DNA of 38,499 nucleotides from Candidatus Woesearchaeota archaeon (GTDB lineage Archaea; Nanobdellota; Nanobdellia; Pacearchaeales; GW2011-AR1), in the NCBI GenBank assembly GCA_964555925.1, contig CAZKUJ010000003.1, positions 1 through 38,499 of the forward strand, in the 5' to 3' direction. This document shows, piece by piece, positions 7,087-20,717 of this stretch; the first letter of the stretch is position 1; each line of letters begins with the position of its first letter. The position numbers and the translations under genes are program-made. Under the pieces are notes generated by a model. It did no database searches. It was given only the letters and a program-made list of their open reading frames with translations, and was not told the origin of the DNA.

Positions 7087-10000
7087 ATGAAAAAAGAAAT
7101 CAGAAATAAAAAACAGAGAATTGTTTTGAATATTTCTTTATTTGTAATTTTCCTAGCAAGTGTTCTGCTTATTAATCTGGCTTCAGCAGAATCATATTCT
7201 CGATCAGTTACAGGATATAGCCAATATGTTGGCGTGCAATATTCTACTGGAGATACCTACTTTCCTTTTGTATATGGTGCTGACGGAAGTTTTAACAGAA
7301 ATCTTTGCCAGGCAGGACAGGATTTTCTTCTTTATGTTTCTCCTACAGGATGTATTCCTTCTGTTGTGAGAAGTGATTTGCTTGAAGAGCAAAATGTTCC
7401 TGTTTTTTGTCCGATTATGGCAACAAAACTTAATCCTTTAATAAATGTTGACGCAATAGATTATGTTTCTTTTAGAGGAAATACTCCTAAAGAAGTTTCT
7501 GGAATTGGATATTATCCTGCGCAAGCTGCATTGGGAAAAGCCGGTTTTCAGGTGACTTCTTCTTTAGCAAACAATATAGGTTATGCAGTTATTGTTTTAA
7601 AACAACAAAAAAACGAATCTGCAATGCCTAGTTTTGTTGAAGGAAATATTACTGCTGTAATAAAATACGATATTAAAAATGCGTTTGGAGTAGGACAAGC
7701 ATCATTTTATCTTCCTGTAATGAGTGACGCAGAATGGAATGAAAATTTTAAAAGATATGGTTTTTGGCAAGGAAGAGGTTATCTAAGAGTAGATTCTGTT
7801 GAAGATGATAGAGCAACAATTTCGATTTATTCAGATAGAGAAACATATAGTTTAGCAAAAACAGACAAAAAAGTTGTTGCAACTGTTCCGATTGAAATAG
7901 GAAAAACCTCAAGAGAAATACTCATGCCTGGTTTTGATTATTGTATGGGTGGTTTACAATTAAAACTTAATGGAATTGAAAATCCTGATACGATGGTCAA
8001 ATTAAATGTGAATGGAGATTATTTTGATTTAAAAAAAGGAGAGAAATTCATCGATGAAAAATGTTATGTAAAAAATCTAGATAAAAGAGGTGTTATTGAA
8101 TCAGTAGAAATAACTTGTAGAGAAGATGTAAAAACAAATACCTTTTCTCTAAGCATAAATCCAAAAATTGTGCTTGAGATGGGTGGAGTTGCAAGAAATT
8201 ATAGTCTTGGTGAGAAATTATACGCAGAGATTAAAGACGGAAAAGAAACTGGAAAATCTGTTTATCTTGTTTATGCTAGAACAAAAGGAGATACAAGAAA
8301 AGAAGAAAATCTAACGGTCACTCTTGCCGCTATTCCTGGAAATGCAGAGAAATTAAGTGATAGTGATTTAACTTCTATTGGAAAATTTTTAAATAAATAT
8401 CCTTCACCCGAAAAAAGCAGCACAATTGCGGAGAGAGGGATTAATGCACTTAAATCTGTTTTATCTGGAACAGGACTAATTCTTAGGGGAATAATAGAAG
8501 GACAAGCTTTTAAGGACATCAATGTTAATGAACCAGCAAAAGAACTTTTTGGAAAAAATATAAAACTTATTGGATTTGCAGGTGCAAGAGATGCAGATAC
8601 TTCTCGGTTTTATCCTTTATTTAAGGAATATTATGATAATGCTATGAAGGATTATAATGCGATTATAGGTAATTATCCTAGTGAAAAATATCCTCAAGAA
8701 GAGCAAATAACTTTAGGACAAAGGGCTTTAACTGAAATGATAGGTCTTGCGTATAAAGCGCAACAAATGAGAACAATTATGGATTTGTGCAGGAATTTTG
8801 AAGAAAAATATTCAAATTTTGATGTTCCAGATGTTTGCCAAGATTCTCATAAACTTTCAAGTTTTGATGCTTCTTCAAAAGATGTTGAGATTGGAGGAAA
8901 AGTTTACAGTATTTCAATGGTTAGAATTCAAGAACCTTCTTTTGAAGATTTAGGCGTAACAATTGATATTAGCGGAACATCTGTGAATTTTACTGGTTCT
9001 AGAGATTTGCGTTTGAATGATAGAGTATATGTTAATGAATCAGAATATATTTCTTTAATTGGGCTTGAAAAAGATTATGCTGTTTTTGATATTAGCGGGA
9101 TAAGTAGAGCAGCAACTACAGTTGGAAGCACTGTAAAGATAAATTTAAATTCTTATGAGCTTGTCGGAAGCAATAATTATCGTATTGGCGTAACCACAAT
9201 TAATCTTAAAAAAGTAGCAAAGGTTTCTGTTATTCCACGCATAGAACGCGAAACAACTAACGCAACATTTTCATTTAAGATAGGAATTGAAAAAAGGGGA
9301 ATACAACTTACTCCTGAAAAAACACAAGAGAGAATTGAAAAACTTAATAAAACAATTGCTCAATGGAAAAATCTAAATGAAAAATTAGGCAGCGTGGTTA
9401 AAGCAGGTAAAGCAGCATGTCTTGTTACAGGGACAGCACTTACTATTAAAAATTTCTTTGCAAATCTTAAAGGTGAAGGAATTGCAAGAGAAATGGTTAT
9501 GAGGAAATCTGGAGGATGGTTTGAATTTTGTGAGGTAGAAAAGATTAAAACAGGACAATCAGTGGACTCTTGTTTGTTAGCGAATTCTGATAAGATAGAT
9601 TCCAATGTAGAAGAAGTTACTAAAATAATACAAGAGCAAAATAACAAATACAAAGAACTTCAAGAAGGAATAACTAAGAGAACTGATTTTTTAGGAGAAG
9701 ATGTTGTTGATACAGATGCATTAATGAAAAGATTTGTTGATGAAGACCCACAGTTTAAGAATGATTTGAATAATATTGTAAATAAACTAGAGAAGGTTAA
9801 AATTAGCGGCTCTGATGTGAATGTTTCAGAGATAATTAAAGGAATCAATAGTGAAACAATTACTTTAACTCAGGCAAGAGAGATTCAATTGAATTCTAAA
9901 CTTTTGAATTCTGAAGACGCCAAAATAAAAGAAATTGCGAAAAAGAATTTAGAAGCAAGTTTAGGAGATGTTTGGGTTAATTCAAGAGATAAAATTGCCG

Positions 10001-13000
10001 TAAATACTCTTAAAGATAAACTTCCAGATGGTTTGAAAGATTTAGGAGTAAGTGTTCGTGCTCAAGGAACCGCGATTACAGAAGTGTATGAAGGAAAAAC
10101 AACAACCCAGCAAGTTGGCCAAATTCCTGCGAATGTTCCTGCACAAACATTGATTTATGGTGGAAAAGATTATATCATAGAACTTGAAAAAGCAGGAGAA
10201 ACCTATAGAGTTAAAGAAATTTATGATACTATGGGAAACAAAATAGATAGTACTTTATCAGCATATCAAGAAATAAAAAATAAATTTATATTTAGGCAAT
10301 TCGACAAAACCACATATAAAAATCCGTCTACAACAATGGTGTTAAGATATTATGAAACTGGAAATTATAAGGGTGTTCCTGCAATTGTTCCTTTTGACAC
10401 TTCAAATGGATGGTATGCTGCAATTAAACCATCTATTCCAATACTTGGCGCAATAAAACCTGTTGATGATTCTGGAAGAGTTTCAAGTTTCTGGCTGTGT
10501 AATGTTGGATCAAATAAAAAAGAAGAATTCTTTGAGCTTACTGATTCTGGAAGAGGAGATGATATCTGCCAGATGATTAATCGCGCAACAGGACAAACAT
10601 ATGACTCGTTTCCAGGACTTGATTCGAGCGAGGCATCTAAATTAGTTAATAATGCACAGCTTGCAATCTCGCAAGCCCAAAGAGCTTACAAATCAGGAAT
10701 GAGCAATAAAGTGAATATACTCGGAAAATCTATTTCATTAGGAGAACCTACTTTTGGCAATCCCGATATACAATGTCAAGATTTTATGTCTCCTAAAGAC
10801 TGCAATCTTATGTTTAATGTTTGTGACCCTGTTGTTTGTCCAAGTTCACGATGTAATCTAGGTGGTGCCTATACTGTAAAAGATGTAATTCAATCAGGAA
10901 TAGCAGGAAGCATTGCTCTTTGTCTTCCTAATTTCCCAGAAGTTATTGTTCCTGTTTGTCTTTCAGGAGTTCATGCAGGAATTGATGGTTATCTAAGTGT
11001 TATGGAATCTTATCAAGAATGTTTGGAAACTAGTTTGAAAACAGGGCAAACAGTTGGAATTTGTGATTATTTAAATTCTGTTTATATGTGTGAATTTTTC
11101 TGGAAGCAATCTTTACCTGCTGTAAAATACGTTGTTCCTAAATTAATAAGCAAGATAGTTGGACAAGATGTTCGCGGAGGAGGAGAGTATCTTAGTGCTA
11201 AAGATGCATGGGAAAAAGCAGGAGATTCTGTGGATTTCTTTACCCAGTATTATGCAGCTAATTCTTATGCTGCTTTTAAAGCAAGATCACTTGAAGGAGT
11301 TGGAACTGAATTTTGTAAAAATTGGCTTTCGATTCCTGGTTTAGGAAATGGAGAACTTTTTGATGCTTTGATAGCTCCTGATTCTCCGTCTCAATTTTAT
11401 GGAAGTTTTGAGGAAATACCTTTTACAACAGCAACTGTTCCACCAATTTCACAATATAAGGTATTTTATCATATTTATGCTGGAAAAGATTTACCTGCTT
11501 ATTATGAGGTTTATCTAAAAGGAGATGTTGGTTATTATTATCAAGATGTTTCTTCTAGAAGACTTGTTGCAAGAGGATTTATTGCTACAGGAGAGAGTGC
11601 ATCAAATACAGAAGATTTCACAGCTCCTTCAGGATATAATGAACTTTGTATTGTTGTAAATAATCAAGAAGAGTGTGGATTTAAGCAGGTTTCAACTGAT
11701 TTTGCTGTCCAGTATATATCAGATAGTTTTGTTGCCCAACAAGCTAAACAAACAGATGTTACTAGTTCAACTGAATGTGTCTCTGGAACATCTAGTCTTC
11801 TTAGTTTATTAAATCCAAATCTTCAGGCAGGAGCAACTGAATTGCTAAATCCTGCAATTTACAATAGAGGAATTATTAGAATCTGTTCAACAGATAATCC
11901 TGGAAAAACAACAGACTCTTATGCGGGGACAGAGAAAGCAAGATGGAAAGAAGTTGGTTATTGCGACACTACTGCAATAAAATGCTGGCTTGATACTAAA
12001 AGTGTTAAGGACACAATAGAAATAGGAACAATTGAAAACGCAACTCTGAGCGAGGTGTCTACTAATTACTTATCAATTTTAATGAATGGTTCAGATTATG
12101 TTGAAAATTTTGATGAGCTTGTTAAGGAAATTGAAAATGAAAATGTTTTGACTGAAAAAATAAAAAAAGTAAATGAAAATTTAGACAAAGTCTATTTTAA
12201 TTATCAAAAAGGCTATCTAACATTATTAAGAGGAGATGCTTCTAAAGCACTCGCTAATCTTGCTATCTCGCTAAAAGTATCTATTGCAGGTACAGAAACT
12301 ACTAGCGATAAAACTGAAACTCCTCCTAGCGATAAAACTGAAACTGTTTCTGATTACAGAACCCCTATAGATAACATAGGAATAACATCTCCAATTCTTG
12401 AATATGAGTCTGGAGGAACCCTCGGATTAGGCAAAAACAAGGTTTATTACATATACTCTAAAAGTAAGTGGTATTTTTCTCTTACTGGAGAACAAAAAAC
12501 AGAAGAATGGTTTCCTATAGATAAAACTCTTCCAGAATATGGAAAATTATCCACGAAAAATCAAGAACTTACAAATAGTTTAGTTGATAAGTCTTATTTA
12601 GATGGGCTTATGCTGTTGATTTACAAAACAACCCAGAATGAAGATGGCGGTTTTTTGTCTAATGTGTATTTATCTACAAAAAGAATTGAATTTTCACACA
12701 ATAAAAGATTTACATTCCAATCATATGAACCATTAACTTTTTATTTTGAATATGATGATTCTTTAAAAAAATGGAAGTGGTCTGATAATAAAGAACAATG
12801 GTTTTCAGTTTCAGAGAACATTTCATCTGCATCAGATACAGCGCAATTAGCACTTGCGTACGAAACAGAAAATTTAAGACCTTTAATAGAGAAATTTAAA
12901 AATTTAGTAGGAGCACTTAGAGAAAAATCATTTTATCAAGGATCTGCATTAATTTTTCAAATTGATGCAGTAGAATTTTCGATTGAAACTCCTTCTGAAG

Positions 13001-13542
13001 CCGAAACTTGTCCTGTTCCAAGTCCTACAGAAGCAGTATTAGCAATATCAGATCCTCAAAAAAGAGTTTTGAAAACAGTAGAGGAGCTTAATGGAAAACC
13101 TGCCCCTGGTTCTTCTTGTTTTCATTCAATTGAATTTGTTTATAGAAGCGCAGCAGTTGATTTTGGATGTACATATTCTGATAAGTCAGGTCAACAATAT
13201 AATATAGATGGAGAGATAATAATTATAGGTGAAGATAAAGATGCTCAAAATGCAATTATCTTTCTTGTGCCAACAGGAGCAAGCTCTTGTAAATATCCTC
13301 TCGGCGCATTAAATTATCAGCAAAAGCTAGACCAAATTCAACCAGGAGATTGGTTAGATGTTGCATGGACAGATAAATCATCTCATGCTGTCATATTTAT
13401 TGGATGGGAGAATAAAGAAAAAGGATATGCACGAATATTTGATTGGATAGGCGGAGGAAGTAGGACCTATGGATATCAAAATGTATATTTAACAGAAAAT
13501 ACTAATCCTGTTTATTTGCATAGAAGTCCTGTACTGGCGTAA
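7087..13542 (+). CDS. Giant (2151 aa) Cys-rich exported protein with putative C-terminal NlpC/P60- or CHAP-like peptidase domain
   Basis: Sec-type signal (FVIFLASVLLINLASA|ES), Cys-dense core (CQDFMSPKDCNLMFNVCDPVVCPSSRC), C-terminal SCFHSIEFVY...IQPGDWL...SHAVIFIGW. Starts 1 nt after the upstream stop. Confidence 0.75.
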   Translation: MKKEIRNKKQRIVLNISLFVIFLASVLLINLASAESYSRSVTGYSQYVGVQYSTGDTYFPFVYGADGSFNRNLCQAGQDFLLYVSPTGCIPSVVRSDLLEEQNVPVFCPIMATKLNPLINVDAIDYVSFRGNTPKEVSGIGYYPAQAALGKAGFQVTSSLANNIGYAVIVLKQQKNESAMPSFVEGNITAVIKYDIKNAFGVGQASFYLPVMSDAEWNENFKRYGFWQGRGYLRVDSVEDDRATISIYSDRETYSLAKTDKKVVATVPIEIGKTSREILMPGFDYCMGGLQLKLNGIENPDTMVKLNVNGDYFDLKKGEKFIDEKCYVKNLDKRGVIESVEITCREDVKTNTFSLSINPKIVLEMGGVARNYSLGEKLYAEIKDGKETGKSVYLVYARTKGDTRKEENLTVTLAAIPGNAEKLSDSDLTSIGKFLNKYPSPEKSSTIAERGINALKSVLSGTGLILRGIIEGQAFKDINVNEPAKELFGKNIKLIGFAGARDADTSRFYPLFKEYYDNAMKDYNAIIGNYPSEKYPQEEQITLGQRALTEMIGLAYKAQQMRTIMDLCRNFEEKYSNFDVPDVCQDSHKLSSFDASSKDVEIGGKVYSISMVRIQEPSFEDLGVTIDISGTSVNFTGSRDLRLNDRVYVNESEYISLIGLEKDYAVFDISGISRAATTVGSTVKINLNSYELVGSNNYRIGVTTINLKKVAKVSVIPRIERETTNATFSFKIGIEKRGIQLTPEKTQERIEKLNKTIAQWKNLNEKLGSVVKAGKAACLVTGTALTIKNFFANLKGEGIAREMVMRKSGGWFEFCEVEKIKTGQSVDSCLLANSDKIDSNVEEVTKIIQEQNNKYKELQEGITKRTDFLGEDVVDTDALMKRFVDEDPQFKNDLNNIVNKLEKVKISGSDVNVSEIIKGINSETITLTQAREIQLNSKLLNSEDAKIKEIAKKNLEASLGDVWVNSRDKIAVNTLKDKLPDGLKDLGVSVRAQGTAITEVYEGKTTTQQVGQIPANVPAQTLIYGGKDYIIELEKAGETYRVKEIYDTMGNKIDSTLSAYQEIKNKFIFRQFDKTTYKNPSTTMVLRYYETGNYKGVPAIVPFDTSNGWYAAIKPSIPILGAIKPVDDSGRVSSFWLCNVGSNKKEEFFELTDSGRGDDICQMINRATGQTYDSFPGLDSSEASKLVNNAQLAISQAQRAYKSGMSNKVNILGKSISLGEPTFGNPDIQCQDFMSPKDCNLMFNVCDPVVCPSSRCNLGGAYTVKDVIQSGIAGSIALCLPNFPEVIVPVCLSGVHAGIDGYLSVMESYQECLETSLKTGQTVGICDYLNSVYMCEFFWKQSLPAVKYVVPKLISKIVGQDVRGGGEYLSAKDAWEKAGDSVDFFTQYYAANSYAAFKARSLEGVGTEFCKNWLSIPGLGNGELFDALIAPDSPSQFYGSFEEIPFTTATVPPISQYKVFYHIYAGKDLPAYYEVYLKGDVGYYYQDVSSRRLVARGFIATGESASNTEDFTAPSGYNELCIVVNNQEECGFKQVSTDFAVQYISDSFVAQQAKQTDVTSSTECVSGTSSLLSLLNPNLQAGATELLNPAIYNRGIIRICSTDNPGKTTDSYAGTEKARWKEVGYCDTTAIKCWLDTKSVKDTIEIGTIENATLSEVSTNYLSILMNGSDYVENFDELVKEIENENVLTEKIKKVNENLDKVYFNYQKGYLTLLRGDASKALANLAISLKVSIAGTETTSDKTETPPSDKTETVSDYRTPIDNIGITSPILEYESGGTLGLGKNKVYYIYSKSKWYFSLTGEQKTEEWFPIDKTLPEYGKLSTKNQELTNSLVDKSYLDGLMLLIYKTTQNEDGGFLSNVYLSTKRIEFSHNKRFTFQSYEPLTFYFEYDDSLKKWKWSDNKEQWFSVSENISSASDTAQLALAYETENLRPLIEKFKNLVGALREKSFYQGSALIFQIDAVEFSIETPSEAETCPVPSPTEAVLAISDPQKRVLKTVEELNGKPAPGSSCFHSIEFVYRSAAVDFGCTYSDKSGQQYNIDGEIIIIGEDKDAQNAIIFLVPTGASSCKYPLGALNYQQKLDQIQPGDWLDVAWTDKSSHAVIFIGWENKEKGYARIFDWIGGGSRTYGYQNVYLTENTNPVYLHRSPVLA
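12302..12345 (+). repeat. 20-bp direct repeat (24-nt period) encoding the TSDKTETPPSDKTET linker
   Basis: CTAGCGATAAAACTGAAACT at 12302-12321 and 12326-12345. Confidence 0.9.
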
Positions 13543-17463: not shown

Positions 17464-18927
17464 ATGAGAAAAGAAATTTCATTTCTTGTTATTGCTGCGA
17501 TTATTGCATTGGGCATAATTATTGTCTATTATTGGGGGGGGCAGCCTACGGGATTTTTTGTTTTTGATGAATATGAAAACCAGACAGCTTGTGAAGATGC
17601 AGGATATGTCTGGGAAAATTTAACAGCGCAGAATTGTACTGCTATTGTCGATTGTACTCTTTGTGTAGTTGGATGTAAAACTAATTGTACTGAATGTATC
17701 GATGTTGTAATTGGTGAATGTGTTGAAAATATAACTCTTTCTGAAAATTATTGTGAAGATGCGAATTATACTTGGTGGGAAACTACTGAGCAGAATTGTA
17801 CTGATATTGTTAATTGTACTCTTTGTGTAGTTGGATGTAAAACTAATTGTACTTCTTGTGAAACTATTATAATTAGCGGACGGTGTACTGGAGATGTTTG
17901 CGATTCTGATAATTTAAACTTATGTGTAGAAACAAACTGTACAGAAGCGGGAGGACACTGGTATGACGGTTCCTGTCAGGAATCTGTTCCTAGTCTAACA
18001 TGCGTGCCTTCTTGGAATTGTAGTACGTGGACTCCAGAAATATGTCCATCTTCTGAAACTCAAACAAAAACTTGTAAGGATTTAGAAAATTGTGGAGTTG
18101 AGAAACGTGTTGAGAACAGAACCTGTACCTATACTCAGGCTCCAATGCCCTCTCTTAATGCAGATAATATTGAAAATCTTAAATTAAATCCAGGAGCTTC
18201 TTCTGAAATTGCATGGAATGTTATAAATAGTGGAAAAGTCTTTTTGAGTTCTTGTTCTTTTGAAGCTAGTGGAGATTATGCTGAGTGGATTTCTTTTGCA
18301 GGTGATGGAATAACAGATATTGGAATAGGAAATACAGCTAATTTTAATTTTAGTGTTAATGTTCCTGAAGAAATTGAAGAAGGAGAGTATGCTTTGAGTG
18401 TTATTGTTAGATGTTCTCAAGTATATGTTTCAAAGCAATTTGTTTTGCAGGTTGAAACTAAGAAACTCGAATTTGATCTAATTGCTGCAGATAGAACAAG
18501 ATTAGATAAGGTAAGAATAATTTATTCTTTAGGAGAGCTTACAGGAGAGGCCCAGGATGTAGCACTTAAGTTTTTACTTATTGGAGCAGGGGCTGAAGAG
18601 GTTGCATTTATTGAAGAAAATAGAAGTCTTAAGGCAAACGCAACTAAAGAATTCACTGCTAACATGCCGATTAATGAATCTCTAGAAGGAGAGCTTGAAT
18701 TAGTTATTAATTATAATTCAGAAATATACTCAAGTTCTGTAAGAGAGCCAATTGTTCTTGGTGCACCTATTGGAGGAGCAGCAATCTTCGAAGATATTGG
18801 TACTGGTGAAATTGCTATTATTGTAATTGTTCTGGTTTCTTTGGTTTTAGCATTGTTTGTTGTAAAAAAGATAAGAAGTTCTGGAAAAACACTAAAAACT
18901 CTATTTCAACGTAAAAAAGAAGTATAA
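17464..18927 (+). CDS. Cys-rich, membrane-anchored surface (glyco)protein with internal repeat and probable Ig-like domains
   Basis: N-terminal hydrophobic segment, duplicated QNCTxIVxCTLCVVGCKTNCT, WNCSTWTPEIC...QTKTC segment, many N-x-S/T sequons, C-terminal TM plus basic tail. Confidence 0.85.
   Translation: MRKEISFLVIAAIIALGIIIVYYWGGQPTGFFVFDEYENQTACEDAGYVWENLTAQNCTAIVDCTLCVVGCKTNCTECIDVVIGECVENITLSENYCEDANYTWWETTEQNCTDIVNCTLCVVGCKTNCTSCETIIISGRCTGDVCDSDNLNLCVETNCTEAGGHWYDGSCQESVPSLTCVPSWNCSTWTPEICPSSETQTKTCKDLENCGVEKRVENRTCTYTQAPMPSLNADNIENLKLNPGASSEIAWNVINSGKVFLSSCSFEASGDYAEWISFAGDGITDIGIGNTANFNFSVNVPEEIEEGEYALSVIVRCSQVYVSKQFVLQVETKKLEFDLIAADRTRLDKVRIIYSLGELTGEAQDVALKFLLIGAGAEEVAFIEENRSLKANATKEFTANMPINESLEGELELVINYNSEIYSSSVREPIVLGAPIGGAAIFEDIGTGEIAIIVIVLVSLVLALFVVKKIRSSGKTLKTLFQRKKEV
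17651..17853 (+). repeat. 41-bp perfect direct repeat, 162-nt (54-codon) period
   Basis: ATTGTACTCTTTGTGTAGTTGGATGTAAAACTAATTGTACT at 17651-17691 and 17813-17853. Confidence 0.93.
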
Positions 18928-18964: not shown

Positions 18965-19002
18965 GTAGTGCCTACAAAACATTTAAATATCTCTTTGTAG
19001 TG
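18965..19002 (+). promoter_or_regulatory. glyS promoter: TATA box flanked by a candidate operator
   Basis: TTTAAATA at 18982-18989, 21 nt before the ATG. Inverted repeat CTACAAA (18972-78) / TTTGTAG (18994-19000). GTAGTG at 18965 and 18997. Palindrome GTAG-N3-CTAC at 18965-75. Confidence 0.55.
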
Positions 19003-19010
19003 GGTAATTA

Positions 19011-20717
19011 ATGGCATTTATCGTTAAAAAAAATATTCATGGAAAAGAATACTTCTATCTAAATGAAAACAAAAGAGTAGAGGGGAAAGTAAAAACAAAG
19101 ACCCTGGCTTATCTTGGGAAGTCAAAGAAAGAAGCAGAGAAAAGAGCAAAAGAAATTATTAAAAATTTAGAAAATGGAAAAAGGCCTATGCAAGAAAAAG
19201 AAAAAATAAAGAATAAAAAACAAGATATTAAAAAGGAGAAACTATCCGAAACCAAGATGGAAATTCAAAAAATTTCAATTGAAGAATTAACGACTTTTTG
19301 CAAGCGTAAAGGATTTGTTTATCAATCAGGAGAACTTTATGGAGGATTTGCCGGTTTCTGGGACTTTGGCCATTTGGGAGTTGAAATGAAGAATAATATA
19401 AAAAAATTATGGTGGCAATTTCATGTAGCAGAAAGAGAAGATATTGTCGGAATTGACGGGAGCATTATAACAAATCCACAGGTTTGGGTTGCCTCAGGAC
19501 ATGTTTCAAGTTTCGTGGATGTTGCAATTGTGAACAAAAAAACAAAAGAAAAACTTAAAATCGACAAATTTGAAGCAGAGAATTACAAAGATAATCCTGA
19601 CTTTGAGATTAAAGGAGAGTTTAATCCGATGTTTACAACCCAGGTTGGGCCTGTTGAAGGAGACTCAATCAAGTCTTATCTTAGACCTGAAACAGCACAA
19701 CTGATTTTTACAAATTTTAAATATGTTTATGACAATGCGAGACTTAAACTTCCTTTCGGAATAGCCCAGATTGGAAAAGCATTTAGAAATGAAATTGCTC
19801 CAAGAGATTTTTTATTCCGTTCGAGAGAATTCGAACAAATGGAAATCGAGTATTTTATTAATCCAAAAGAAGAGAAGTGCCCTTATGCAATTCCAGATGT
19901 TGAAGTTTTCATCTATTCTGAAGAAATCCAGAAAAAGAATTCAGAACCAATAAAAATGAAAATAAAAGATGCTTTTGAAAAAGGAATAATCAAAAAGGAA
20001 TGGCATGCTTATTGGCTAGCTCTTGAACTTTTATGGTTTAAGAATCTCGGTGCAAATCTTGAAAACTTTAGAATAAGACAACATTCTAAAGAAGAGCTTT
20101 CGCATTATTCTTCAGATACATGGGATCTTGAATATAAATTTCCTTTTGGATGGAAAGAACTTGAGGGGATTGCCGATAGGGGAGATTATGATTTGTCCCA
20201 ACACGAAAAATCTTCAAAAAAAGATTTAAAAATTTTTGATGAAAATTCAAAAGAGAAGATTCTTCCACATGTCATTTGTGAACCAAGTTTGGGTGTTGAA
20301 AGAGCATTTTTGGTTTTTATGTTTGATTCTTATTTTTATGATAGTGAAAGAGAAAACGTGGTTTTGAAACTTAATCCAAAACTTGCTCCGATTAAAGCAG
20401 CGGTTTTTCCAATTGTTAAAACAAACAAAAATATTGTTAAAATTGCTAGAGAAGTTTATGAGGAATTAAAAAAAGAATTTAATGTGGATTATGATTCTGG
20501 AGGAAGTGTTGGTAGAAGATATTCGCGAAACGATGAAATAGGGACACCTTTTTGCATAACTATTGATGAAGAAAGTCTAAATAAAAAAGATGTCACAATT
20601 CGCGAAAGAGATACAAAAAAGCAAATAAGGGTAAAAATTTCCGAACTAAAAAATATTTTAAGAAAATTAATTGAAAAAGAGATTGAATTTGAAGCAGCAG
20701 GGAAGATTTTCAAATAA
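19011..20717 (+). CDS. glyS: Glycyl-tRNA synthetase (alpha2 type) with an 82-aa N-terminal extension
   Basis: YGGFAGFWDFG, WVASGH, YLRPETAQ, GKAFRNEI, REFEQME, ELEGIADR, EPSLGVER and an anticodon-binding domain (GRRYSRNDEIGTPF). Confidence 0.97.
   Translation: MAFIVKKNIHGKEYFYLNENKRVEGKVKTKTLAYLGKSKKEAEKRAKEIIKNLENGKRPMQEKEKIKNKKQDIKKEKLSETKMEIQKISIEELTTFCKRKGFVYQSGELYGGFAGFWDFGHLGVEMKNNIKKLWWQFHVAEREDIVGIDGSIITNPQVWVASGHVSSFVDVAIVNKKTKEKLKIDKFEAENYKDNPDFEIKGEFNPMFTTQVGPVEGDSIKSYLRPETAQLIFTNFKYVYDNARLKLPFGIAQIGKAFRNEIAPRDFLFRSREFEQMEIEYFINPKEEKCPYAIPDVEVFIYSEEIQKKNSEPIKMKIKDAFEKGIIKKEWHAYWLALELLWFKNLGANLENFRIRQHSKEELSHYSSDTWDLEYKFPFGWKELEGIADRGDYDLSQHEKSSKKDLKIFDENSKEKILPHVICEPSLGVERAFLVFMFDSYFYDSERENVVLKLNPKLAPIKAAVFPIVKTNKNIVKIAREVYEELKKEFNVDYDSGGSVGRRYSRNDEIGTPFCITIDEESLNKKDVTIRERDTKKQIRVKISELKNILRKLIEKEIEFEAAGKIFK

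Follow-up and report, generated by a model that had tools for sequence, protein, structure and literature searches.

Why does the glycyl-tRNA synthetase (GlyRS) gene of a DPANN archaeon begin 82 codons ahead of the usual start of the enzyme, and what might the additional part do? The question is raised by glyS at positions 19011..20717 (+) of the window, by which we mean the whole stretch of 38,499 nucleotides (nt) analysed here (contig CAZKUJ010000003.1 of the Candidatus Woesearchaeota archaeon assembly GCA_964555925.1). Residues 1-54 of this GlyRS form a predicted domain (the head) that recurs on other proteins of related archaea, and short sequence boxes lie around the TATA box of glyS. We consider it probable that the head is a sequence-specific DNA-binding domain, tethered to the sole GlyRS of the organism, through which the enzyme autoregulates glyS, most likely by repression. 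The case is made from comparisons across genomes and from predicted structures.

The N-terminal head of glycyl-tRNA synthetase

The GlyRS open reading frame (ORF) is open for 568 amino acids (aa), the first residues of which are MAFIVKKNIHGKEYFYLNENKRVEGKVKTKTLAYLGK. The body of the enzyme (19257..20717, +, stop codon included) consists of a class II core and an HGTP anticodon-binding domain. It was recognised in NCBIfam by NF003211 (554 bits, cut-off 312, E 2.6e-166) and TIGR00389 (481.4 bits, cut-off 243.3; residues 90-414 aligned with profile positions 3-349), and in Pfam by PF00587 (residues 222-431) and PF03129 (residues 462-552). By equivalog score and domain content this is a dimeric glycine--tRNA ligase of the archaeal/eukaryotic type, and the NCBIfam matches of the whole protein were to synthetase families only. 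Since the curated GlyRS models align from about residue 88-90, some 82-87 residues precede the normal enzyme; an initial annotation of the window, made from its letters alone, had claimed 82 residues ahead of the usual GlyRS start, and both the ORF and the model alignments bear this out. The GlyRS body had a single match in the source genome (G000, a 457,547-bp assembly); as this assembly is 87% complete, a second GlyRS copy may exist. Close homologues of the enzyme bear names of Pacearchaeota/Nanoarchaeota-type DPANN archaea, and the DNA of the window was found again in lake-water metagenomes.

With residues 1-82 as query, 448 of 842 candidate proteins (312-994 aa) matched at E<=1e-3, and a synthetase class II core was present in every one of the best 120 of these 448. 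When 20 fused enzymes were aligned, hardly any variation was seen in residues 1-50 (22 positions among residues 1-44 did not vary at all), and residues 55-85 differed in length and sequence. We distinguish here the head (residues 1-54; 19011..19172, +), defined by its predicted fold, its near-invariant residues and its homology to IS1634 transposase N-termini, and the tether (residues 55-82; 19173..19256, +), which is rich in Lys and Glu, variable in length and sequence, predicted to be disordered and aligned with gapped columns. Over the first 48 head codons, the 21 pairs formed by seven loci had 320 synonymous versus 236 non-synonymous codon differences. Head identity to the window's was 80-88% in enzymes whose body identity was 38-77%, a contrast that is partly built in, the rows having been picked as best head matches. 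A survey of DPANN GlyRS and other enzymes found the fusion of head and GlyRS conserved, and the head on other proteins as well. Judged from these alignments, the extension is a conserved fusion and no chance open frame.

The start codon can be judged from the same data. A TATA box lies 21 nt ahead of the ATG at 19011, and this spacing, which the initial annotation had taken in favour of a start there, was found again in relatives (21-22 nt). It fits a leaderless mRNA, with transcription starting at about 19011. Translation from 19257 or another internal Met, which would leave the upstream frame outside the enzyme, might be suggested by the Met at residue 83 and by the curated GlyRS models that begin nearby, but we regard it as very improbable. 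M83 is unconserved, with a Met near its column in 3 of the 20 sequences; the in-frame fusion with its variable tether is conserved; and ahead of 19257 the window sequence offers neither a promoter-like spacing nor a ribosome-binding site at a suitable distance.

An AlphaFold2 model of the head, built from a 33-sequence alignment, agrees with the early guess of three strands plus a helix: the strands (residues 2-9, 12-23 and 26-36) form a three-stranded antiparallel sheet and are followed by a helix (residues 39-54), with a predicted local distance difference test score (pLDDT) of about 95. The model of the full-length protein has the same head fold, and residues 56-81, between head and enzyme, are at pLDDT <50. 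Net charge is about +8 for residues 1-54 and about +6 for the tether. The predicted fold and the charge suit DNA binding. It had also been stated that the head is not a WHEP domain, with which we concur: no WHEP family matched at E<=1 in Pfam, and the model is a sheet plus helix.

The suspected likeness to IS1634-family transposases turned out to be homology between the head and the transposase N-termini (hhalign 94.8%, E 5e-8). Against eight IS1634-family loci, the head profile matched L087 (E 7.9e-7), L090 (E 1.2e-6) and L089 (E 0.012). Genes of this family (NF033559) were found in 10 of 201 genomes of the phylum, with no match in the source genome. The GlyRS has no transposase body, and its likeness to the family is confined to the N-terminal sheet region. 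A likeness to archaeal Fic proteins, also noted at the outset, was confirmed by related heads on such proteins. For a link to the viral proteins named beside them, no support came from PHROGs, from a tblastn search of phages or from a Foldseek search of BFVD (best E 0.04).

Foldseek, the check that had been proposed for the fold, gave as the top match in the PDB the arm-type domain of the HPI integrase (3jtz), at a weak E of 0.12; its weak matches also include double-stranded RNA (dsRNA)-binding domains. With VIA-align, the head matched 3jtz at Z 4.8 (root-mean-square deviation 2.6 over 50 residues, 22% identity), AP2 at Z 4.9 and lambda Int at Z 4.6 and 4.4, all of them weak matches and level with unrelated folds (Z up to 5.6). 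In Pfam, the profile PF13356 (Arm-DNA-bind_3) aligned its positions 30-82 of 83 with residues 11-65 of the GlyRS at 17.1 bits (E 0.0059), under the gathering threshold of 27 bits, and gave any hit in just 2 of 33 head family members. Since these matches are sub-threshold and unrelated folds score equally, membership of the Arm family is not established.

No Pfam, NCBIfam or PHROGs family covers the head (the Pfam searches took in 33 family members and 21 further relatives). The nearest clusters in the ESM Atlas were unnamed archaeal proteins of 47-55 aa; DUF6788 scored only 0.77 there. Among the other candidates rejected, a Choline_bind_3 hit (3 of 33 members) reflects the GxxYYY hairpin alone, a sequence search of solved structures gave chance hits only (a TIF1-beta coiled coil, E at least 0.76), and an internal match in LysRS (E 0.016) and a helicase match (E 0.16) in the source genome were judged to be chance.

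Boxes in glyS promoters

The glyS promoter of the window contains two copies of an 11-bp box, for which the aligned upstream regions of head-bearing genes give the consensus GTAGTGCCTAA. The distal box (GTAGTGCCTAC; 18965..18975, +), a match to GTAGTGSSTA, lies just 5' of the B recognition element (BRE)/TATA region. The proximal box (GTAGTGGGTAA; 18997..19007, +) lies between the TATA box (TTTAAATA; 18982..18989, +) and the start codon, and ends 3 nt before the ATG. The two boxes are thus direct repeats 32 bp apart that flank the TATA box. GTAGTGSSTA was observed twice in the window versus 0.03 times expected from shuffles. The whole genome has three sites of GTAGTG[GC][GC]TA, two of them at the glyS promoter (18965 and 18997) and the third at C13:263, where GTAGTACCTAA is its partner, again 32 bp away, and the glyS promoter itself holds the largest share of the genome-wide boxes. 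A 7-bp inverted repeat around the TATA box (CTACAAA/TTTGTAG; 18972-18978 and 18994-19000), an arrangement that occurs also in L013, was rejected as a separate operator, because it results from the way in which the distal box variant ends (..CCTAC) and from the sequence that flanks the proximal box on its 5' side.

Across GlyRS genes, a forward GTAGTNNNTA was found at -30..-12 in 17 of 22 fused loci versus none of 26 unfused loci (16 of 21 fused loci if L024, from the unpublished genome G322, is left out). A second GTAGTNNNTA lies at -60..-31 in 5 of the 22, and L009, L013 and L017 also have a box at the distal position (-46/-45). The remaining 65,515 bases of the 22 fused loci had 8 hits on both strands together. 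When at most one mismatch to the 11-mer was allowed, the 22 loci and a GatD locus (see below) had 22 hits in 2,464 upstream bases versus 7 in 68,999 other bases, and in 41 genomes of the window's family the exact 11-mer occurs 25 times versus 6 for the reversed control. In the 17 aligned promoters a TATA-like A/T block stands at a constant distance from the proximal box. The positions of the box that the pattern leaves free are kept there (G in 11, C in 12 and C in 13 of the 17 promoters; A at +10 in all 17), and the flanks of the box are unconserved.

The unfused loci belong to a control of 30 GlyRS loci evenly sampled over the class, comprising 3 fused loci, 26 unfused ones and a truncated one that was left out. 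All three fused loci were boxed, and the 26 unfused promoters had no box on either strand, even at two mismatches. Unfused and box-less GlyRS genes occur within the window's own family too (G085 and G189). The box patterns were defined with the data in view, and only then followed the control with unfused loci and the counts over whole genomes; all the box evidence is comparative, and the related genomes are not independent. When a protein module and a DNA motif come, go and change in step, and the motif lies on the core promoter of the module's own gene, this is the signature of an autoregulated DNA-binding protein. Here, the motif is rare elsewhere in the genome, tracks the domain, and is absent from head-less orthologues.

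Several neighbours of glyS were recorded alongside. A tRNA-Cys gene lies 5' of the fused glyS in L005, L008 and L011. In the first two it ends directly before glyS, with about 45 nt left for the entire boxed promoter; in L011 it lies about 150 nt 5' of glyS, and the promoter is without a box by the pattern used. In the window, the gene directly 5' of glyS (17464-18927, +) encodes a 487-aa Cys-rich protein with CTxCVVGCKTNCT repeats and a C-terminal hydrophobic anchor, and an ORF of 2151 aa (7087-13542, +) lies farther 5'.

The head and its boxes on other genes

A profile search found the head in 273 of 401 genomes of the phylum (four unpublished genomes included), and 21 of 27 genomes of the window's own family had a match. 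On GlyRS (ORFs of about 550-596 aa) it occurs mostly in that family, and in a few others. Other carriers are Fic proteins of about 300-350 aa (four of four tested), histidine phosphatases, an oxidoreductase fragment and, in one case (L026, genome G359), GatD; genes of about 50 aa encode the head alone. In L026, GatD_N and asparaginase domains stand behind the head, as in the subunit D of Glu-tRNA(Gln) amidotransferase. A class of about 165 aa (L034-L037, L043-L045) is related to the head and has a C-terminal domain without assigned function; its head reads MFIRTKK..YAYLVKNxW, and the class has no Pfam or NCBIfam match. The protein P0212, at first guessed to be transposase-like, had no hit in NCBIfam.

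Five of the at least ten stand-alone head genes listed were examined. All five are first in operons and have one to four [GA]TAGTGCCTA boxes within 130 nt upstream, with one box at -14..-21 in four of the five. In three of these genomes, the promoter of the head gene itself holds 4 of 5, 2 of 4 and 1 of 2 of the exact genome-wide sites. Directly 3' of the head gene, four of the five loci (L038, L040, L041 and L042, from genomes G065, G154, G158 and G181) encode a large signal-peptide-like protein (500 to >680 aa), and a 4-nt overlap between the head gene and the downstream gene was read off at two loci. A small stand-alone regulator thus seems to lead putative cell-surface operons.

The boxes themselves vary from one group of genes to another. 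Six Fic genes (L023, L027-L031) have GTA[AG]AGGGTA, direct and inverted, just 5' of the TATA box, and the Fic-type box can be written as GTAAAGGGTAA. The Fic gene of L032 has GTAAGCCCTA twice, 32 bp apart, and L017 has GTAGTTATTA twice. The GatD gene is preceded by four boxes phased at about 31-33 bp. Box variants change with head variants, and the copies within one promoter agree. Among IS1634-family genes with the homologous N-terminus, four of five inspected have GTAGTG-type boxes beside the TATA box and the start codon.

In the source genome, a Fic-domain-like protein (L047; contig 2, 23352-24305, -) has a divergent head (E 5.6e-4), and no further copy of the GlyRS-type head was found in that assembly. 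The box variant of this Fic gene is GTAGGGGTA; its TATA box is followed by TGTAGGGGTA and preceded by ATCCCTACA in inverted orientation. The gene starts right after an apparent tRNA-gene 3' end, which was not called by ARAGORN and possibly belongs to an intron-containing gene.

A further boxed locus of the source genome (L046; contig 13, bases 1-336) has GTAGTGCCTAA and GTAGTACCTAA at a distance of 32 bp, and the pair is oriented divergently to an scpA-like gene. The same scpA-side element is present at L048 (G281) and L054 (G414). About 100 nt beyond the boxes there is a conserved TATA box with a small-RNA-like element, the single-stranded 5' part of which (AUCACCUCUUUUUCCCC) resembles the anti-Shine-Dalgarno end of 16S rRNA; its hairpin stem differs among the three genomes and folds in each (single-sequence folds). 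Searching these loci with Rfam gave nothing but a sub-threshold snoR25 match (E 0.83) elsewhere in L046. Genome G281 has further box pairs in promoter-like settings (L049, L050): a pair lies 5' of the TATA box of a zinc-ribbon, transposase-like gene, and a second pair lies on either side of a TATA box on a 24-kb contig, where no ORF is evident downstream.

Possible mechanism and known systems

The initial annotation had proposed that the head makes GlyRS a regulator of its own promoter. This idea gained strong comparative support, which the letters of the window alone could not give: boxes flank the TATA box, track the domain and are missing from GlyRS genes without the domain. Binding itself, repression rather than activation, and the use of the enzyme dimer are what we infer from it. 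Each head would bind one 11-bp box as a monomer. GlyRS of the archaeal/eukaryotic type is a dimer, so that one enzyme could put two heads on both boxes; on tethers of about 28 residues, the heads would span boxes about three helical turns (32 bp) apart. Occupation of the proximal box would block the polymerase loading region and hinder TBP/TFB or the polymerase. Blocking between the TATA box and the start is the usual mechanism of archaeal repressors. Plentiful enzyme would in this way repress glyS, and the amount of GlyRS would stay constant with no need of a further regulator. Other boxed promoters, of which the genome has few, may likewise be targets of the enzyme. A coupling of this regulation to glycine, ATP or tRNA-Gly is speculation by analogy with BirA.

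Promoter, boxes and head behave as one unit, which in related archaea is a stand-alone gene at the head of operons and is here fused to glyS. Since the nearest relatives with identical boxes are such stand-alone genes, the simplest history would be the fusion of one of them, with its promoter, to glyS, so that glyS took up head and promoter together. Ancestry shared with IS1634 transposase N-termini, whichever way the descent ran, fits the idea of a module from a mobile element. A wider reading is possible, and we put it forward only tentatively. In genome-reduced Nanoarchaeia-type archaea, a leaderless promoter, GTAGTGCCTAA-type boxes and the 50-aa domain might make up a portable self-regulating gene head, related to IS1634 transposase N-termini and put in front of many cargo genes or joined to them (genes for secreted proteins, Fic, GatD, phosphatases and the essential GlyRS). 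GlyRS would then replace the stand-alone regulator, and would be both the sole glycine-charging enzyme and the transcription factor of a small regulon that includes the conserved small-RNA-like gene with its anti-Shine-Dalgarno-like 5' end, tying translation capacity to transcription.

Several observations weigh against self-regulation through the head. Five of the 22 fused promoters (L011, L016, L019, L021 and L033) have no forward box by the pattern; near-variant boxes exist in L033 and L016, and none in L019 and L021. In the 165-aa class, boxes were found in none of seven loci, so that not every relative of the head would be autoregulatory. Promoter and head are adjacent DNA, and their co-occurrence may therefore partly reflect shared descent or co-transfer. 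With the source genome 87% complete, a stand-alone binder could sit in the missing part. To these are added the weak structural matches and the low PF13356 score given above, and the metatranscriptome X15, the matching contigs of which cover 19848-20166 and 18800-18884 only, outside head and promoter.

The boxes might be bound by the head with an outcome other than self-repression, either activation through recruitment of TBP/TFB from the distal box, or a role mainly in trans, at boxed loci elsewhere (the small-RNA-like gene next to scpA, for example). The distal box does lie 5' of the BRE/TATA region, a site used by archaeal activators, and there are other boxed promoters (C13:231/263 in the source genome and three further loci in G281). 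We nevertheless find this rather unlikely, given that the best-conserved box (17 of 22) is between the TATA box and the start codon, the classic position for a repressor, and that the glyS promoter itself has the most boxes genome-wide. It also seems unlikely to us that head and Lys-rich tether bind RNA or tRNA in a general way and increase the affinity of the enzyme for tRNA, as appended domains do in eukaryotic synthetases, while another factor reads the boxes. GlyRS and GatD are both cargo enzymes that work on tRNA, the charged tether is predicted to be disordered, and dsRNA-binding domains are among the weak fold matches. The same head, however, is found on Fic proteins, histidine phosphatases, an oxidoreductase and transposases, and alone; the occurrence of boxes with the head in GlyRS promoters (17 of 22 versus 0 of 26) would be left unexplained, and a second candidate binder of the head family was not found in the source genome.

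Head and boxes could, on the other hand, be a hitch-hiking remnant of a mobile or operon-head cassette, fused by loss of a stop codon and without a present role in GlyRS. The homologous N-termini of IS1634 transposases, with similar boxes in their promoters, point to such an origin, and the 4-nt overlap of stand-alone genes with the downstream gene leaves fusion one mutation away. A remnant would hardly be expected to have stayed as similar as the heads are on diverged bodies (though in rows picked for head similarity), to show an excess of synonymous codon changes, to keep its boxes while the flanks vary, and to be retained as a fusion across hundreds of sequence clusters. We consider this explanation improbable.

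We therefore prefer the reading in which GlyRS, by means of the head, represses its own gene. None of the aminoacyl-tRNA synthetases known to us has an added domain devoted to sequence-specific DNA binding, with operator boxes to match it. The initial annotation knew of no description of the fusion, and our search of openly accessible full texts likewise found none; the accessible parts of PMC5370408 and PMC9437257 do not mention it. What appears to be new is the dedicated DNA-binding head on a synthetase, the domain family with its recognition box, and the use of both as a portable cassette. If this is true, the head defines a family of DNA-binding domains that is uncharacterised and lacks a Pfam or NCBIfam model, and the boxes give the sequence that this family probably recognises; organisms poor in transcription factors would wire feedback directly into an essential enzyme of translation; and insertion sequences and host genes would have in common a concrete cassette of promoter, operator and domain.

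A parallel in domain and box is the IS1634-family transposase (NF033559), which has the head-like domain at its extreme N-terminus, as the GlyRS does, and GTAGTG-type boxes in the promoter close to the start codon; the two proteins differ in the body, which is a transposase in one and a synthetase in the other. The function of this transposase N-terminus is, to our knowledge, uncharacterised, and our literature search found no study of it. The arm domains of integrases (PF13356; 3jtz, and lambda Int 1z1b/2wcc) are N-terminal too and have the three-stranded sheet plus helix that is predicted for the head. As monomers, tied to the protein by a flexible linker, they recognise repeats of a short site, which is what we propose for the GlyRS head. 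The head differs from them in its score below the cut-off, in structural matches no better than those of unrelated folds, and in the lack of a tyrosine recombinase body.

In E. coli, ThrRS too is a synthetase with feedback on its own expression, and its operator is a nucleic acid at the gene's 5' end: it regulates its own translation via a tRNA-like operator in the mRNA, using its normal tRNA-binding surfaces. GlyRS, with a probably leaderless mRNA, would use DNA around the TATA box as its operator and an added domain to bind it. BirA, a biotin protein ligase that doubles as bio repressor, acts as a dimer, and the operon that it represses is linked to what the enzyme itself does. It uses a winged helix-turn-helix on an inverted-repeat operator, and its binding is switched by dimerisation driven by biotinyl-AMP, whereas GlyRS is already a dimer and its proposed operator is a direct repeat.

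Enzymes that double as repressors include BirA, PutA and AlaRS, and for AlaRS, where the original work reportedly dates from 1981, it is already known that a synthetase represses its own gene. According to the accessible part of PMC10485164, E. coli AlaRS is a repressor of its own gene, and the specific DNA to which it binds lies around the transcription start. The likeness to our proposal lies in a synthetase that would repress its own gene at its own promoter. The AlaRS of E. coli is bacterial, acts on a palindrome and has no dedicated appended sheet-type DNA-binding head. The GlyRS, in contrast, has a separate, tethered module of 54 aa, the proposed reader of direct repeats around an archaeal TATA box, and this module serves many other proteins.

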